DNA from: a virus
Strand: one strand, 5' to 3'
Virus record (IMG/VR): IMGVR_UViG_3300033405_000004
Span: 93,323 to 157,322 of that record
DNA: 64,000 bases
In this document: positions 19,660 through 26,188 of the stretch, piece by piece
How positions within the stretch are numbered: the stretch's first letter is position 1
Layout of the letters: each line of letters opens with the position of its first letter
The notes under the pieces: model-generated
What the model saw: only the letters and a program-made list of their open reading frames with translations
What the model was told of the DNA's origin: nothing
Database searches by the model: none
Position numbers and translations under genes: made by a program

Positions 19660-20895
19660 ATGCCAGAAACTGTTTCGATTTCGGACGGCACGGGTAAGCG
19701 GGCGCCGAGCGCCAGCTGGAAGATCGTGAGCTTCAGCAAGCCGGTCCTCTGGACGAGGACCGAGGAGGAGGTCTGGATGCTGCACCCCCTGCGGCGGTAC
19801 ATCCTCAACGCGGACCAGCTCGAAAGGCTCATGCCCTACATAGAGACCATGTCGGAGCTCAAGGGGTCGCGCCACTACCGGCCCCTGGTGGCCGGGGCGG
19901 CCCTCGCGGGCACCCGCATCCTCGTCTACCGGTACGCCGACCGCGGCGTCGGCGACCACCTCTTCATGACCGGGCCGCTGAACTACCTCCGCCACGTCTC
20001 CGGCAACAGCGCCGACATCACCATGTACGGCCTGACCGACCGCCACCAGATCCTCGCCTTCCACCCCGCCCTCAAGCACGAGGCCGTCCTGGCCGGGCCG
20101 GTGCACTACGACGACCTCCAGTACTACCACTGGCACTGGTTCGTCGAGACCGCCACCGAGTACGACGAGGAGTTCGACCAGCTCAACGTCTACGACTCGC
20201 TCTACCGGCAGATGGGGGTGGACCCGACCACCGTCGACGTCACCTTCAAGCGGCCCTCGATGAAGCTCAACGATAAGGACTACAGGGACCTCGACCAGCT
20301 GTACTACTTCGTCTACTGCAACCGCAAGCTCGACCTGCGCCTCACGCCCTACTACGTGGTCGCCCCGACCTCCTATGCCAGCCTGCGCTCCGCCCCCTAC
20401 GGGCTGTGGCTGGCCGTCATCGCCGAGCTGGCCAAGGTCAGGCCCGTGGTCGCCGTCGGGCGCCCGGGCAAGGGCCGCATGCCCGACACCGACCTGTCGT
20501 TCGGCCAGTTCGTGGGCGACCTGAACAAGATCCCCAACACGGTGAACCTGATGAGCGACATCCCCATCCGCACCGTCGCCGCCCTGGTCTCACGCGCCAT
20601 CTGCGCCGTCACCCTCGACGCCGGCATCCTCTACGTCGCCCAGGCCCTCGGCGTGCCCGCCGTCTCGCTCTGGGGCACCCACGCCCCCGCCGTCCGCCTG
20701 CTGTACGACAAGAAGTACATGGACCTGGCCGTCTGGAACCGCGAGGCCTGCCACAACTCGCCCTGCTTCTCCTACGCCGTCTTCCCGAAGGCGAAGTGCC
20801 CCCGCGGCGAGCTCCAGAAGGTCTGCGAGCCGTTGGCCGCCGTGAAGCCGTCCGACGTCATCGCCAAGGTCACCGAGGCCGAAAAAGCCCGCTAG
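19660..20895 (+). CDS. GT9 (heptosyltransferase-like) glycosyltransferase
   Basis: RGVGDHLF, AVTLDAGILYVAQALGVPAVSLWG, C-x2-PC Cys cluster. Confidence 0.88.
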   Translation: MPETVSISDGTGKRAPSASWKIVSFSKPVLWTRTEEEVWMLHPLRRYILNADQLERLMPYIETMSELKGSRHYRPLVAGAALAGTRILVYRYADRGVGDHLFMTGPLNYLRHVSGNSADITMYGLTDRHQILAFHPALKHEAVLAGPVHYDDLQYYHWHWFVETATEYDEEFDQLNVYDSLYRQMGVDPTTVDVTFKRPSMKLNDKDYRDLDQLYYFVYCNRKLDLRLTPYYVVAPTSYASLRSAPYGLWLAVIAELAKVRPVVAVGRPGKGRMPDTDLSFGQFVGDLNKIPNTVNLMSDIPIRTVAALVSRAICAVTLDAGILYVAQALGVPAVSLWGTHAPAVRLLYDKKYMDLAVWNREACHNSPCFSYAVFPKAKCPRGELQKVCEPLAAVKPSDVIAKVTEAEKAR

Positions 20896-20902
20896 TTAGC
20901 CG

Positions 20903-22069
20903 ATGAGCTACTGCGACATCATCTGCGGCGAGGCGCTCGCCGAGCTGCGCAAGCTGCCCCCTGATTCGGCGCACGCCTGCGTGACGGACCCGCCGTACGG
21001 CCTGAAGTTCATGGGCAAGGACTGGGACCGCGGCGTGCCTGGGTCGGCTTACTGGGCCGAGGCCCTGCGCGTCTGTAGGCCCGGCGCCCACCTCCTCGCG
21101 TTCGGCGGCACGCGCACCTTCCACCGGCTCGCCTGCGCCATCGAGGACGCCGGGTGGGAGATCCGCGACACCCTGATGTGGGTCTACGGCTCCGGCTTCC
21201 CGAAGTCGCTCGACGTGGGCAAGGCCTTCGACAAGGCGGCGGGGGCGAAGGGTGAGGTCGTGGGCGTGCAGAAGGTCGACGTGGGGATGCAGTCGGGCCA
21301 CATGCACAGCGGCAGGCGGTCGGAGGTGGTCGAGCGCGAGGTGCGGGCGCCCGCGACCGACGAGGCCAGGGAGTGGCGCGGCTGGGGCACGGCCCTCAAG
21401 CCCGCCTGGGAGCCGATCTTGCTCGCCCGGAGGCCCCTCGACGGGACCGTGGTGGAGAACGTGCGGAAGTGGGGCTGTGGGGCGCTGAACGTCGACGGGT
21501 GTAGGGTGGGCGAGGAGAGCACCGTTCGCACGAGGAGGGACAGCCTGAGCGCGTCTGGCTGGGCGAGCGTGAACCGCTCGCCAGTGGGCGGGTCGGAGGC
21601 GGGCCGCTGGCCCGCGAACGTGGTGCACGATGGCAGCGAGGAGGTTCTGGCGGGCTTCCCCCGCACTAGGAGCGGCAGCGATACCGTCAAGCGGGAGAGC
21701 GGGGCCGACCGCGACGGCAACCGGGGCGCGGCCTACGGGGCCGAGAGCCGGCCCGCCGGGTCGCCGATGGTCTTCTACGGCGACGAGGGCTCCGCCGCCC
21801 GCTTCTTCTACTGCGCTAAGCCGAGCCCCTCCGAGCGGGAGGGCAACCCCCACCCGACCGTCAAGCCGCTGGCCCTGATGGAGTGGCTGCTGCGACTCGT
21901 CTCCAGGGAGGGCGACACCGTGGTCGACCCGTTCGCCGGGAGCGGCACCACGGGCGTCGCGGCCTACCGGCTGGGGCGGAACGCCGTTCTCATAGACAAG
22001 AGCCGCGCCGACTACGAGACCATGAAGGCCCGCATGGCCAAGGCCGGGGCGGCCCTCGAACCCATTTGA
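20903..22069 (+). CDS. DNA N6-adenine/N4-cytosine methyltransferase (beta class)
   Basis: TDPPYG ... HPTVKP ... DPFAGSGTTG. Confidence 0.93.
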   Translation: MSYCDIICGEALAELRKLPPDSAHACVTDPPYGLKFMGKDWDRGVPGSAYWAEALRVCRPGAHLLAFGGTRTFHRLACAIEDAGWEIRDTLMWVYGSGFPKSLDVGKAFDKAAGAKGEVVGVQKVDVGMQSGHMHSGRRSEVVEREVRAPATDEAREWRGWGTALKPAWEPILLARRPLDGTVVENVRKWGCGALNVDGCRVGEESTVRTRRDSLSASGWASVNRSPVGGSEAGRWPANVVHDGSEEVLAGFPRTRSGSDTVKRESGADRDGNRGAAYGAESRPAGSPMVFYGDEGSAARFFYCAKPSPSEREGNPHPTVKPLALMEWLLRLVSREGDTVVDPFAGSGTTGVAAYRLGRNAVLIDKSRADYETMKARMAKAGAALEPI

Positions 22070-22071
22070 AG

Positions 22072-23373
22072 ATGTGGATACTCCCGCGCCACTTACACAC
22101 CTCAGCCTTTGTTCGGGATACGAGGGCATTGGTCTCGGACTTGAGCGAGCTGTCCCAGGCCTGCGCACAGTCGCTCTTTGTGAGATCGAAGCCTTTGCCT
22201 GCGCGAACCTGGTCGCAAAAATGGAGGCGGGACTCCTGGACCCGGTTCCTCTCTGGACGGATCTGCGCACCTTCCCATTCACAGAGTTTCACGGACTCGT
22301 GGGCGTCCTGTCAGGCGGCTTCCCTTGCCAGCCCTTCAGCGCCTGCGGCAGGCAGGCCGCCGACCACGACCCCCGGCACCTCTTCCCCGCCATCCTCGAA
22401 GGGGTCGAGCGGTGCCAGCCCGCCCTCGTCTTCCTTGAGAACGTGCCCGGGATTGTCTCCGCCAAGCTCAAGGGGGATGGCTGGTCGGACCCCGCCGGGA
22501 CCCCCGTTCTGCTCCATGTCCTCCGAGAGCTGGAGCGCGTGGGTTACCGCGTCGCGTGCGGACTATTCAGCTCGGCTGAAACGGGCGGCAGCCACCGGCG
22601 CGAGCGCATCTATATCCTGGCCCACCGCCTCGGCGCGGGACTGGAAGGATTCGCCCGGCATGTCGACGGAGCGGCGGAGGGGCGTGGACCAGCTGGCGAG
22701 GGTCGTCTACCACCAAGTCCCGCCGGGCCCGGGGGGCGGCAGCTCTGGTGGGAGCCCCCCAGGACTCTGGCAAACGCCAAGCACGGACAGCTTTCGAAGC
22801 CGGGGCCGGGACCGGAAGGACGAGATGGGCCTGGACCAGCAGGTGAGGTACGGCCCGGCGAGGTGGGCGACGCCCAGGGCGGAGGACGCGGAGAGCGCGG
22901 GCCGCAGGGTCGAGCGGGGGACGGCGGACACGCTGACGGCCCAGGTGAGGGAAATGTGGCCGACGCCGAAGGTCATGGACGCGGAGCGGTCGTCGCTCCA
23001 GACGCAGGCGAAGTACGTGGCCCGGACCGGGCGGCAGACGAACCTGAGGGCGGCGGTGGGCATGAGCCTGTGGCCGACGCCGAGGACGCCGACGGGCGGG
23101 GCGGAGTCGGCGGGGAGGAAGCAGGAGCTGGGGCGGGACGCGTCGGGCGGGGGCGACCTGACGAGCGAGGTGAGGAGGTGGCCGACGCCGATCCACGGCT
23201 GCGCGGAGGCGAGCCACGGCCAGATCAGCGGCCAGTATCGCGACGCGATGACGGCGGCGGGGGTCCCCGCGGGGAGGCTGAACCCGCGGTGGGTGGAGGT
23301 CTTGATGAGGGTGCCGGTGGGCTGGTGCCTGCCGAGCTGTTCGTATCCGTGGACTCCCGGACCGACGAGCTGA
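22072..23373 (+). CDS. Overlapping-frame beta chain of the C5 methyltransferase (WPTP repeats plus motif IX), true start uncertain
   Basis: Six W(P/Q/A)T(P/A) repeats and GRLNPRWVEVLMRVPVGW, in a second frame open for 1.3 kb. Confidence 0.75.
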   Translation: MWILPRHLHTSAFVRDTRALVSDLSELSQACAQSLFVRSKPLPARTWSQKWRRDSWTRFLSGRICAPSHSQSFTDSWASCQAASLASPSAPAAGRPPTTTPGTSSPPSSKGSSGASPPSSSLRTCPGLSPPSSRGMAGRTPPGPPFCSMSSESWSAWVTASRADYSARLKRAAATGASASISWPTASARDWKDSPGMSTERRRGVDQLARVVYHQVPPGPGGGSSGGSPPGLWQTPSTDSFRSRGRDRKDEMGLDQQVRYGPARWATPRAEDAESAGRRVERGTADTLTAQVREMWPTPKVMDAERSSLQTQAKYVARTGRQTNLRAAVGMSLWPTPRTPTGGAESAGRKQELGRDASGGGDLTSEVRRWPTPIHGCAEASHGQISGQYRDAMTAAGVPAGRLNPRWVEVLMRVPVGWCLPSCSYPWTPGPTS

Positions 23374-23456
23374 GGCTCCTGGGCAACGGAGTCGACCCGG
23401 TCGTGGCTGAGCACGCGTTCAGGACGCTGCTGGCCCGGCTGCTGGAGGGGCCGTGA
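22074..23456 (+). CDS. DNA C5-cytosine methyltransferase, alpha chain (motifs I-VIII and X)
   Basis: LSLCSGYEG, GGFPCQPFS, FLENVPG, HRRERIY, LRLLGNGV. Motif IX is missing from this frame. Confidence 0.88.
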   Translation: MDTPAPLTHLSLCSGYEGIGLGLERAVPGLRTVALCEIEAFACANLVAKMEAGLLDPVPLWTDLRTFPFTEFHGLVGVLSGGFPCQPFSACGRQAADHDPRHLFPAILEGVERCQPALVFLENVPGIVSAKLKGDGWSDPAGTPVLLHVLRELERVGYRVACGLFSSAETGGSHRRERIYILAHRLGAGLEGFARHVDGAAEGRGPAGEGRLPPSPAGPGGRQLWWEPPRTLANAKHGQLSKPGPGPEGRDGPGPAGEVRPGEVGDAQGGGRGERGPQGRAGDGGHADGPGEGNVADAEGHGRGAVVAPDAGEVRGPDRAADEPEGGGGHEPVADAEDADGRGGVGGEEAGAGAGRVGRGRPDERGEEVADADPRLRGGEPRPDQRPVSRRDDGGGGPRGEAEPAVGGGLDEGAGGLVPAELFVSVDSRTDELRLLGNGVDPVVAEHAFRTLLARLLEGP

Positions 23457-24658
23457 TCGCCGAGGTCTGCGTGGACACGGCGTACGTGCAGGACACTGGG
23501 GTCTACTACCGGGTGGTCTCCATGGCGCCGGGCGCGATCGTGGTCTCCGAGCGGTGCGGCGACGGCGCCGGCCTGGAGATGCCGCTGGAGGAGTTCAAGC
23601 GGCGGTTCGCCGCCCTGGACCTGCAGGAGGAGGCCAAGCTGCGGTGGGCGGAGAAGGCCCTCAGGAGGAGGGGCCTCCCGGCCGACCGGGAGACGGTGAG
23701 GGGCATCTGGCGGCGCCCGCTGGAGGACCCCCCGGCGCCCGAAGTCGACAAGGCTAGCCAGCCGCCCGACGGCCCGCCGCGGCGGGAGAGGGAGGAGTCC
23801 GACCAGTCCGCGGGCGGCCGTGGCGGCGCTAGGTCGCCGGACATTGGCGTGCTGGTGACGCCCTCCAAGTCGGACGACCTGGCCGGCCTCGTGCTGAGCG
23901 AGTCCACCCGCCAGGAGCTGGACGACGCCCTGCGCCTCATCCTCCGGCGCGAGGACTTCGAGGCCGTCTGGAGGCTCGGCGAGATCTTCCCGTTCAAGAA
24001 CCGCTGCGCCCTGAACTTCTACGGCGAGCCTGGCACCGGCAAGACCACGGCGGCGCGCGGCCTGGCGCTGCGCCTGGGGCGCCAGCTCTACCAGGTCGAC
24101 TACGCCAAGCTCACCAGCAAGTGGGTCGGCGAGACCGACAAGTACATCAAGTTCGCCTTCGAATACGCGCACCGGGCCATGGCGGTCCTCTTCTTCGACG
24201 AGGCCGACAGCGTCCTCAGCCGGCGCATGACCGACCCCGACCAGTCGTGGGCCGTCGCCCTCAACCAGCAGCGGAACGTCCTGATGCAGGAGCTTGACAG
24301 GTTCGACGGCATCGTGGTCTTCTCCACCAACCTCTTCTCCGCCTACGACTCGGCTGTCGTGCGCCGGATCTCCCACCACGTGGAGTTCCCCATGCCCGAC
24401 CAAGGCATGAGACTTCGCCTGTTCCGGCGTCACCTGCCTAACCCGGACCGGGCCGTGCTCAGCCAGGCGCAGTGGGACCGCCTGGCCCTCGACAGCCGCG
24501 GCCTCTCCGGGGGCGACATCCTGAACGCCTGCGTCAACGCCATGGTGCGGGCGAGCGCCCCGGCCGACGTCGCCGACTGGAAGCTCACCTTCAAGCTGCT
24601 CGACGACGAGGCCAGGAGGGTGCTGCGCACCAAGCTCGCCGCGGCGGGCCATAGTTAG
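23453..24658 (+). CDS. AAA+ ATPase
   Basis: YGEPGTGKT, SKWVGETDK, LFFDEAD, STN..D.AVVRRI. Confidence 0.92.
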   Translation: MIAEVCVDTAYVQDTGVYYRVVSMAPGAIVVSERCGDGAGLEMPLEEFKRRFAALDLQEEAKLRWAEKALRRRGLPADRETVRGIWRRPLEDPPAPEVDKASQPPDGPPRREREESDQSAGGRGGARSPDIGVLVTPSKSDDLAGLVLSESTRQELDDALRLILRREDFEAVWRLGEIFPFKNRCALNFYGEPGTGKTTAARGLALRLGRQLYQVDYAKLTSKWVGETDKYIKFAFEYAHRAMAVLFFDEADSVLSRRMTDPDQSWAVALNQQRNVLMQELDRFDGIVVFSTNLFSAYDSAVVRRISHHVEFPMPDQGMRLRLFRRHLPNPDRAVLSQAQWDRLALDSRGLSGGDILNACVNAMVRASAPADVADWKLTFKLLDDEARRVLRTKLAAAGHS

Positions 24659-24661
24659 TTC

Positions 24662-24970
24662 GTGGCACAGCAGAAGGTACAGCTCCCGGCCAACTCGGCC
24701 TACGTCACGACGCCCATCTACCAGCAGCCCGACGGCACCGTCGTCTTCGGGCTCCTGCAGCTCGCCACCCCGCCGGACCCGAGCGACCGCCTCTACACCG
24801 TCCCGGCCCAGTTCGAGGACAGGCTGGACCTGATCAGCAACGGCATGTACGGCCTGCCCGACTTCTGGTGGGCGATCGCGGAGGCCAACGGCCTGGTGGA
24901 CCCGCTCATGGAGGCCTCCGAGGGCGTCCAGATCCGCATCCCGCTCAAGTCGAGGCTGCCGAGCACCTGA
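24662..24970 (+). CDS. Baseplate gp53/LysM-like protein
   Basis: DRLDLISNGMYGLPDFWWAIAEANG. TAGTTA-N4-GTG start. Confidence 0.78.
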   Translation: MAQQKVQLPANSAYVTTPIYQQPDGTVVFGLLQLATPPDPSDRLYTVPAQFEDRLDLISNGMYGLPDFWWAIAEANGLVDPLMEASEGVQIRIPLKSRLPST

Positions 24971-25370
24971 GCGCGCGGCGCACCCGCCCCACGGCCCTCC
25001 TGCCCGTGCCGCCGAGCTGGCACTCCCAGATCGTGACCACCCGGTAGCCGAGCCTGCGAAGCTCGGCGGCCACCCGGCGGTCGCGGCGCCGGTTGTTCGC
25101 GATCTTGTCCTGCCAGAAGCCGGTGTGCGTCTTCGGGGTCTTGGAGTGTCGCGGGCAGCCGTGCTAGAAGCAGCCGTGCACGAAGACGCAGACGCGCTGC
25201 TCGCGGAACGTGAAGTCGGGCGTGCCCGGCAGGGGCGACTGGGGCGACCACTTCGGCAGCCCGGCCTCCTGCATGAGCGTGGCCAGCCTGACCTCCGTCG
25301 TCTTGTTCCCGCTGCTGCGGATGCGGGACATTATCTCGGAGCGCTTCTGCGGGCTGACGGTGTCGGCCAT
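24945..25370 (-). pseudogene. vsr: Very-short-patch repair endonuclease interrupted by an in-frame TAG
   Basis: MADTVSPQKRSEIMSRIR..LPGTPDF..FVHGCF*HGCP..FWQDKIANNRRRD..LGYRVVTIWEC. TAG at 25164-25166 replaces the conserved Trp. Confidence 0.88.
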
Positions 25371-25387
25371 GGTGGAAGTTGTAAACA

Positions 25388-26188
25388 TTAAACGTCCGGG
25401 ACGGCAAGCTCACACCGTCGGCAGATTGGGTCCCCACTGGCGTCGTCCCGCTGCGCCTCGCGGACGCGCCGGTAGGCCTCACCCCTGAACAGTTCGGGGT
25501 AGCCCGTCGCGGTCAGGTTGCCGAGGATGTGCTCCATCCCGTAGTCCATGCAGCACAGGACCACGTCCCCGTTCGGGAGCAGGACGTTGTGGTCCAGCTC
25601 CGGGCCGCATGCCGAGCACTTGATCCTGCCAGCCCGCCAGGGAACCGCCTTCCCCTTCAGGTTGCCGGCCCGGCCTACGATGCCGCCCAGGTCGCTCGGC
25701 ACATCCCGGCCCAGCGCCTCCCGCACCCTGGGGTGGAGCCTGCCGATCACCGTGACGTGGCTCCCGGCGGGGTGGGCCAGCGCGAGCCGCAGCACCGCCA
25801 GGTAGTCGTCCGTGACCTCCAGCTTCATCATGCCGTCCGCGTCGGGCAGGTGCACGCAGAGGCACAGGAGCGGCACGTGCCAAATGCGGGCCAGGTCCGC
25901 CGGCTTCATGCCGAAGGTCGTGGTGTAGACGCCGACCCGGTAGCCCGAGTCGTGGGCGTGCAGCAGCATGTCCGTGGCCCGCGGGTTCAGCCATGGCTCG
26001 GCCATCCCGGCGAACAGGATCTCCACCCCCTTGGGGACGCCGGCCAGGCATCGCGCGAAGGTGTCGAAGGACATCTCTCGGGGGCCGCCCACCCTCGCGT
26101 AGGCGCGCACGTGGGTCGCCTGCGGGCAGTAGTCGCAGGCCATCCTGCAGCCCACCGTCGTGGACACTTCGAGGTTGGGTTTCGGCAC
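25388..26188 (-). CDS. Radical SAM protein with a SPASM/twitch domain
   Basis: CRMACDYC, GMAEP, NGDVVLCC, ICRRC. Confidence 0.9.
   Translation of the reverse strand: MPKPNLEVSTTVGCRMACDYCPQATHVRAYARVGGPREMSFDTFARCLAGVPKGVEILFAGMAEPWLNPRATDMLLHAHDSGYRVGVYTTTFGMKPADLARIWHVPLLCLCVHLPDADGMMKLEVTDDYLAVLRLALAHPAGSHVTVIGRLHPRVREALGRDVPSDLGGIVGRAGNLKGKAVPWRAGRIKCSACGPELDHNVLLPNGDVVLCCMDYGMEHILGNLTATGYPELFRGEAYRRVREAQRDDASGDPICRRCELAVPDV

Follow-up and report, generated by a model that had tools for sequence, protein, structure and literature searches.

A probable two-chain DNA (cytosine-5) methyltransferase encoded by two near-co-extensive reading frames in a phage genome

The stretch of DNA analysed here (the window, 64,000 nucleotides (nt) in length) is part of a 157,322-base virus record in the IMG/VR database (IMGVR_UViG_3300033405_000004) with a GC content of about 70%. 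On its plus strand, at positions 22072-23456, the window was found to carry two open reading frames (ORFs) of almost the same extent, and this locus probably encodes a DNA (cytosine-5) methyltransferase composed of two chains, designated alpha (frame A) and beta (frame B). A heterodimeric enzyme had been put forward in the original prediction, made from the sequence of the window, and it is the reading that best fits the computational evidence, namely the openness of both frames, the paired start codons, the location of motif IX in frame B and a predicted interface between the products of the two frames. Comparison of sequences shows that relatives keep both frames open and under constraint; from these sequences we infer that the two chains are produced, that they bind each other and that both are needed.

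Frame B (22072..23373, 433 aa) starts with ATG and frame A (22074..23456, 460 aa) with GTG; both terminate in TGA, and they overlap by 1,300 nt in which neither contains a stop codon. The sequence at 22072 is ATGTGGATAC, and the two start codons, 2 nt apart, lie within ATGTGGATA (22072..22080), which is conserved among relatives. The two long frames opened by ATG 22072 and GTG 22074, and all the other elements that the original prediction had read from the sequence, were found again at the same positions. Frame A encodes the catalytic large domain, then an insert that is modelled as disordered and then motif X, and frame B encodes an N-terminal region followed by six modules, each marked by a W.TP-type word, and by motif IX. 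All ten motifs of the C5-methyltransferases are present at the locus, divided between two frames.

The catalytic domain of alpha with motifs I-VIII (22074..22640) was recognised from a match to PF00145 and from reading of the motifs. Motif I (LCSGYEGIG, 22101-22133), motif IV with its PCQ (GGFPCQPFS, 22314-22340), motif VI with its ENV (FLENV, 22431-22445) and motif VIII (HRRERIYILA, 22593-22622) occur together in one chain, all within residues 1-183 of frame A. The match to PF00145 (E = 1.6e-26) is confined to residues 9-186 and takes in positions 3-163 of the 324 in the profile, and the TIGR00675 score of frame A, 76.3, is below the cut-off of 100.65. The match to phrog_363, by comparison, spans residues 3-452 and covers both the N- and the C-terminus. 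Between the catalytic domain and the N-terminal parts of 120 metagenomic proteins the identity is 60-73%. In the AlphaFold2 (AF2) model of alpha, the predicted local distance difference test (pLDDT) value is high (about 90) at residues 1-200 and 430-460 and drops to less than 50 across residues 205-428. The best Foldseek matches of the model were DNMT1, M.HaeIII and M.HhaI (E ~1e-11), and as modelled alpha is shown to have the fold of the C5-methyltransferase large domain, superposing on that of the canonical PF00145 methyltransferases M.HhaI and M.HaeIII. Unlike in the canonical single-chain enzymes, the motifs are divided between two frames, and the PF00145 profile is covered in its first part only.

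Alpha ends with motif X (DELRLLGNGV) and its C-terminal helices, which together occupy 23364..23456, the LLGNGV part being at 23364-23393; D431, R434, G437, N438 and G439 of this motif are invariant and are modelled with a pLDDT of about 90. Motif IX, RLNPRWVEVLMRVPVGW, is located in frame B (23275-23325) and is followed by the beta tail, the two together occupying 23275..23373. It aligns with the canonical pattern of this motif in M.HhaI and M.HaeIII, L-x-P-R-E-x-A-R-x-(M/Q)-G-(F/Y)-P-D-x-(F/Y), and L403, P405, E409, L411, M412, G417 and W418 are invariant in this region. The variable region, motif IX and motif X do not all follow motifs I-VIII in one polypeptide, motif IX being in frame B and motif X in frame A. 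From the GW of motif IX to motif X in frame A there are 19 codons, which is the canonical spacing.

The order in which the meaningful sequence had been predicted to run, A, then B, then A, was borne out by the positions of the motifs and by the third-position GC content, which follows frame A, then frame B (0.90-1.00, from ~22610 to ~23340) and then frame A again, the signal being ambiguous across the first 200 nt of the gene. The order of the motifs (I-VIII in A, the variable region and motif IX in B, motif X in A), the canonical distance from motif IX to motif X and the third-position GC pattern would also be given by a single canonical chain produced by two programmed ribosomal frameshifts, a +1 shift into B once motif VIII has been read and a -1 shift back into A in the interval that separates motifs IX and X. 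This alternative is considered very unlikely. A slippery heptamer of the X_XXY_YYZ type between motif IX and the frame-B stop is absent from the window, occurs in six of 51 distinct relatives and is conserved in none. The first W.TP module (22615-22629) shares 8 nt with motif VIII of alpha, and a conserved helix of beta (residues 151-175) lies over alpha motifs VII-VIII, so that one chain cannot hold all of the constrained parts. Further, a frameshifted single chain does not account for the conservation of the paired start codons.

The start region was compared at 80 loci retrieved from IMG/VR by a scan with the N-terminus of frame A (GC content 47-61%). The sequence ATGTGGAT(A/C) is present at the start of the gene in nearly all of them, and in most the GTG at +2 is the sole candidate for a frame-A start and a purine-rich stretch resembling a Shine-Dalgarno sequence lies 6-10 nt 5' of the starts. 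In some relatives frame A begins at an upstream ATG, and the frame-B ATG is then within the codons for H/D-V-D-T.

An artefact or a decayed gene, with two compensating indels in what was one ORF and the off-frames open through the 70% GC content, is hardly credible as an explanation of the two frames. High GC content does reduce the number of stop codons, and when synonymous codons were resampled with the protein unchanged, the window alone was expected to have just 2.7 frame-B stops in the catalytic segment (P of none 0.01) and 2.9 frame-A stops in the module segment (P of none 0.07), with none observed in either. The third frame, however, has 4 and 11 stops in the same two segments, 15 in all. 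In relatives of about 50% GC the same procedure gave 5.7 expected off-frame stops for frame B and 8.5 for frame A, against an observed mean of 0.57 for frame B, where 41 of 65 loci were free of them, and of 0 for frame A; the residual frame-B stops are provisionally attributed to the 185-codon window used, which extends upstream of the frame-B start.

Checking homologues for conservation and stop avoidance had been proposed originally, and at about 70 of the 80 IMG/VR loci both frames proved to be open over 300-550 codons, whereas the open stretch of the third frame measured only 4-93 codons. At these loci frame B has 1-7 W.TP words and an LNP..W/F motif, and frame A terminates in LRLLGNGVVP. 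Seven apparent exceptions form one clade (L001-L006 and L008) with a single TAA in frame B and an ATG two codons later, after which frame B runs on through the modules and motif IX. This stop and restart is located ~320 nt into the gene, within a linker rich in serine and proline, and beta may in this clade be made as two pieces (an N-terminal one of 107-130 aa, and one with the modules and motif IX) or be reinitiated.

The layout is retained at 47-55% GC in dozens of loci. It was also found in 27 bacterial genome contigs, including Geminisphaera colitermitum TAV2, with metagenome-assembled genomes labelled Verrucomicrobiota, Planctomycetota, Alpha- and Gammaproteobacteria, Bacteroidales and Lentisphaeraceae among them. 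Two divergent loci, L081 and L082, have it too, and it is present in RcIroh, C75C1 and Synechococcus phage Yong-M2-251, all of them cultured phages. Against cultured phages, a tblastn search with the frame-B module region gave no match at 1e-5 and one with protein P0130 gave one record, the low-complexity filter being a suspected contributor in both cases, and a blastn search of phages gave only a 58-nt match, in phage RcIroh. Over 5,549 nt (window 20325-25873) the window sequence recurs without a difference in an independent contig from the Joint Genome Institute (sample 3300033402), and P0121, a 182-aa protein that corresponds to the 3' part of frame B, has been recorded from 11 contigs. As judged from these sequences, the open double frame is not due to chance, sequencing error or decay; the two compensating indel errors that the original prediction had named as its possible undoing are excluded by the conservation of the layout and by the identical independent contig.

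The N-terminal part of frame B is rich in tryptophan and serine, and had been described as Ser-rich filler. This holds for residues 79-138 (22306..22485), a linker with 17 Ser and 12 Pro per 60 aa that is apparently unconstrained in frame B, and does not hold for the regions on either side, residues 1-78 (block 1, 22072..22305, over alpha motifs I-III) and residues 139-175 (block 2, 22486..22596, over alpha motifs VII-VIII), the latter with the helix WSAWVTASRADYSARLK and with W154, W157, V158, R162 and R168 invariant in the alignment. Constraint was assessed by a same-codon ratio, that is the use of identical codons at identical frame-A residues relative to the expectation from codon usage. 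In a first set of 13 non-redundant loci the ratio was 1.6-2.1 for frame A residues 1-78, 1.06-1.24 for most of residues 79-138 and 1.8-2.1 for residues 139-172, the low values of the middle stretch serving as an internal control for saturation. The pattern was replicated with 23 independent loci (mean pairwise identity 0.52), which gave 1.57 for block 1, 1.16 for the linker and 1.59 for block 2. Frame-B identity between the window and the 50%-GC relatives was ~0.40, against 0.26 for a null in which the frame A protein was retained and frame-B stops were forbidden. When beta was modelled alone with AF2 the mean pLDDT was 51, with helices predicted at residues 18-85 (pLDDT 52-63) and 151-175 (pLDDT 88-93), and these are the positions of the two blocks constrained at frame-A synonymous sites. 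By these sequence measures, the N-terminus of frame B consists of two constrained regions joined by filler. Production of a single chain by frameshifting would leave an open and constrained frame B over the first 180 codons unexplained.

The first ~270 nt of the gene (window 22070-22340) have a GC content of 63-64%, lower than that of the flanks, and an ambiguous third-position GC signal with frame B equal to or above frame A. Both properties fit a double constraint on this segment.

An exhaustive HMMER search with frame B residues 183-433 gave 3,105 representative clusters at E<=0.001. None of the best 150 representative frame-B-type proteins has both PCQ and ENV in the same chain, and 34 of these 150 begin with M-W-(I/L), the N-terminus that corresponds to the frame-B start. 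As far as these sequences go, the frame-B family is large and its members are not fusions with the catalytic domain. Residues 231-419 match phrog_1008 ('DNA methyltransferase'), and frame B has no sequence match in Pfam, NCBIfam or the PDB. The N-terminus of frame B was also considered as an independent family occurring without an overlapping methyltransferase, from the divergent frame-B-type proteins P0128 and P0233; this was rejected, as their loci carry the catalytic domain in the -1 frame.

The middle of frame A was predicted to be low-complexity filler, and this was mostly upheld. The segment has 229 residues, 61 of them Gly (27%), is rich in G, A, P, E and R and is unconstrained apart from one 16-residue island, which is the part of the description that did not stand. 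The island (22704..22763, RLPPSP...WWEPPR in the window) has the family consensus WPSRPG.PQ..WEPPR and near-invariant frame-A columns P216, G220, Q223, W226, E227, P229 and R230. Over the island only G216 and G227 are conserved in frame B, because the codons for W-P and W-E in frame A dictate them. At one relative (L111:553-2097) motifs IX and X have an island-like W..Q.PWEPPR between them, all in a single frame, an arrangement which hints that the island is normally placed between motifs IX and X and has become separated from them in loci of the window's type.

A second type of relative divides the motifs differently. In L103 (1474-3363) and L088 (1459-3273), which serve as a natural control, frame B has motif X as well as motif IX and the W.TP modules, alpha ends right after the WPSRPG..WEPPR island, and beyond the island frame A has 14 stops in L103 and 7 in L088. 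Motifs IX and X are likewise in one frame in L093 and L111. The motif scan gave 84 loci of the window's type, type-2 loci being rarer. The two types differ by a 1-nt shift between motifs IX and X. The insert of frame A thus stays open only where motif X stands at its end, since the ribosome must cross the insert to reach that motif. Production of a single chain by frameshifting leaves both observations aside, the open frame A over a 225-codon insert in the window's type and the decay of frame A once motif X is in frame B. The type-2 allocation of motifs to the two frames also speaks against it.

The two-chain reading was also examined by modelling the pair of chains, a check that had been suggested with the original prediction. 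The complex was modelled from three chains (alpha 1-195, alpha 400-460 and beta 178-433), for each of which an alignment was supplied, and the interaction prediction score from aligned errors (ipSAE) was 0.81, with 0.00 for the best of three controls. The calibration mark that the model passed is reached by 58 of 80 solved complexes and by two of 110 mismatched pairs, and is only a rough guide here because the alignments were made by the authors and three chains were used. The runs share at least 25% of their contacts, and the partner pLDDT is 36-38. The predicted interface joins beta residues 403-426 (motif IX and tail) to alpha residues 16-54, 167-176 and 428-443. Since single-chain C5-methyltransferases are among the solved structures, the result may reflect recall of their fold; the model shows that the chains can rebuild the C5-methyltransferase fold, and is not proof that they bind.

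These results bear on a further alternative, that beta is translated and acts independently of the methyltransferase, for instance as a DNA-binding or anti-restriction factor overprinted on the gene. The conserved N-terminal region of beta, to which no function is assigned, and the modules, which match no known domain and are modelled as disordered, would agree with such a role. Beta terminates, however, in a good motif IX, which alpha lacks, and also bears motif X in the type-2 relatives; a target-recognition region is missing from alpha, the insert of which is unconstrained bar the one island; and the predicted interface brings motif IX of beta against motifs I, VIII and X of alpha. An independent role of beta is accordingly regarded as unlikely.

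Several observations weigh against a two-chain enzyme. The synonymous-site test presupposes that codon usage is independent of position, and a comparison of the beta profile with solved structures gave no match at E<=1. The two starts in the window are without a clear Shine-Dalgarno sequence upstream, and the W.TP modules are modelled with a pLDDT below 50 both alone and in the complex. Lastly, the database contains the frame-chimeric proteins P0093, P0157 and P0233, which could be assembly errors or a hint at other products. P0093 and P0157 change between A-type and B-type sequence within one ORF, as A then B in one and A, B, A, B in the other, and are either natural frameshift variants or assembly errors. 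At the locus of P0233 (L082:2001-3368) the frames are permuted: the W.TP modules share theirs with a motif X-type C-terminus, the third frame has a motif IX-like LSPAF..WLMG, and frame A ends early. The permutation is due to an assembly indel or represents a further variant.

The six W.TP modules of frame B, of 31-50 aa each, extend over 22615..23274, with the W of the W.TP or W.TA words at 22618, 22768, 22864, 22957, 23071 and 23179. Of 200 frame-B proteins, which were chosen for the comparison by their similarity to the window, 161 have modules of five recurrent types, m2 (WPTASARDWKD...), m3 (WQTP.TDSFRSRG.DRKDEMGLDQQ), m4 (W.TPRAEDAES...), m6 (WPTPRTPTGGAES...) and m7. Their order varies, with m6-m3, m3-m6, m6-m4, m4-m6, m4-m3-m6, m6-m4-m3 and others being found. 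Shuffled recurrence of this kind only suggests, at the level of sequence, that the modules confer multiple specificities, and their use as interchangeable specificity cassettes is speculative.

For the two-chain enzyme the following course may be envisaged. Ribosomes would reach a single initiation region, possibly by coupling to the N4/N6-methyltransferase gene upstream, and would start either at ATG 22072 in frame B or at GTG 22074 in frame A. In frame A, they would produce the large catalytic domain with motifs I-VIII, followed by an unstructured insert of ~225 aa, and would traverse this insert to reach motif X, the helices of which would pack back onto the catalytic domain. In frame B, they would produce the conserved N-terminal helical region, the S/P-rich linker, the conserved helix, the six W.TP modules and motif IX, with the modules standing in for the target-recognition region. 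Beta would then dock through motif IX on motifs I, VIII and X of alpha, and docking would restore the cleft between large and small domains of the canonical enzyme.

A search of the literature that was accessible found no published description of the phage-wide layout, and to our knowledge a two-frame layout has been proven for only one enzyme, from E. coli. In PMC2836561 and PMC3404938, M.EcoHK31I of E. coli HK31 (Lee, Kam and Shaw 1995), which is specific for YGGCCR, is described as having its beta chain in a different reading frame within the gene for alpha, with both chains required, motif IX on beta, and motifs I-VIII and X together with the predicted recognition domain on alpha. The precedent is thus as the original prediction had described it. 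The locus in the window resembles this enzyme, as published, in that the second chain is in the other frame within the gene for the first and in that motifs I-VIII and X are on alpha and motif IX on beta. It differs in that the candidate recognition modules are on beta, whereas M.EcoHK31I has its target-recognition domain on alpha, and in that beta is co-extensive with alpha (1,300 of 1,383 nt), whereas the M.EcoHK31I beta is a short nested ORF. It differs further in that beta of the window starts 2 nt before alpha, sharing its initiation site, and has an N-terminal region constrained over the catalytic domain.

M.AquI, specific for CYCGRG (Karreman and de Waard 1990, Pinarbasi et al. 2002), consists, in the account given in PMC3404938, of two subunits split in the variable region, with motifs I-VIII on alpha and the distal variable region and motifs IX-X on beta. 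This is exactly the division seen in the type-2 relatives L103 and L088, and beta has motifs IX and X in L093 and L111 as well, while in the window, unlike M.AquI, motif X is on alpha and not on beta. The multispecific C5-methyltransferases of Bacillus phages SPR, phi3T, rho11 and H2 reportedly contain several short tandem target-recognising domains in their variable region. The six tandem modules of the window, of types that are shuffled among relatives, resemble these in arrangement; the Bacillus phage enzymes are single chains. Work on the Bacillus phage enzymes (Gunthert and Reiners 1987, Wilke et al. 1988, Lange et al. 1991) appears among the references of PMC8936443.

Directly upstream of the two-frame gene is a gene for an N4/N6 DNA methyltransferase (PF01555, 20903-22069, plus strand). 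Its TGA (22067-22069) ends 2 nt 5' of the frame-B ATG with no clear Shine-Dalgarno sequence between, an arrangement which suggests, from the sequence, that it is translationally coupled to the two-frame gene. On the other side, the GTG start of a gene for an AAA ATPase (PF00004, 23453-24658, plus strand) overlaps the alpha stop (GTGA), and the ATPase gene is probably in the same operon as both methyltransferases. At a distance of 1.7 kb downstream, on the minus strand, is a gene for a Vsr-type mismatch endonuclease (PF03852, 74 aa, 25164-25388), adjoined by one for a radical SAM/SPASM protein (25388-26143, minus strand). Genes for Vsr often accompany C5-methyltransferases, and its presence fits a phage that produces 5-methylcytosine.

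It had been predicted that standard annotation would miss frame B. This is the case for the cultured phages RcIroh, C75C1 and Yong-M2-251, in which frame A alone is annotated, and is not fully so for the phage of the window, whose public gene calls comprise a 182-aa piece of frame B and a 43-aa tail of frame A and leave the catalytic domain uncalled. In one assembly of this phage an additional antisense ORF of 68 aa is recorded at the locus.

A wider reading would have large-scale dual coding of two folded regions (the catalytic domain of alpha, and the N-terminal helical region of beta with helix 151-175), modules that serve as exchangeable cassettes, dosage of the chains set by competition between ATG and GTG, and a design shared by thousands of phages across host phyla and systematically mis-annotated. 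We regard this combination as somewhat doubtful. If both chains are made, the gene would be among the longest conserved same-strand overlapping gene pairs in phages (~1.3 kb), and the overlap would include a stretch in which both frames are under selection. On the same condition, what has been a curiosity of one E. coli enzyme would turn out to be a design widespread in phages, as frame B matches over 3,000 clusters (50% identity). As gene callers log one frame or fragments, inventories of methyltransferases, specificity predictions of the REBASE kind and studies of phage anti-restriction would be affected. If the modules set specificity, their shuffled forms would constitute a natural toolkit for retargeting cytosine methylation.

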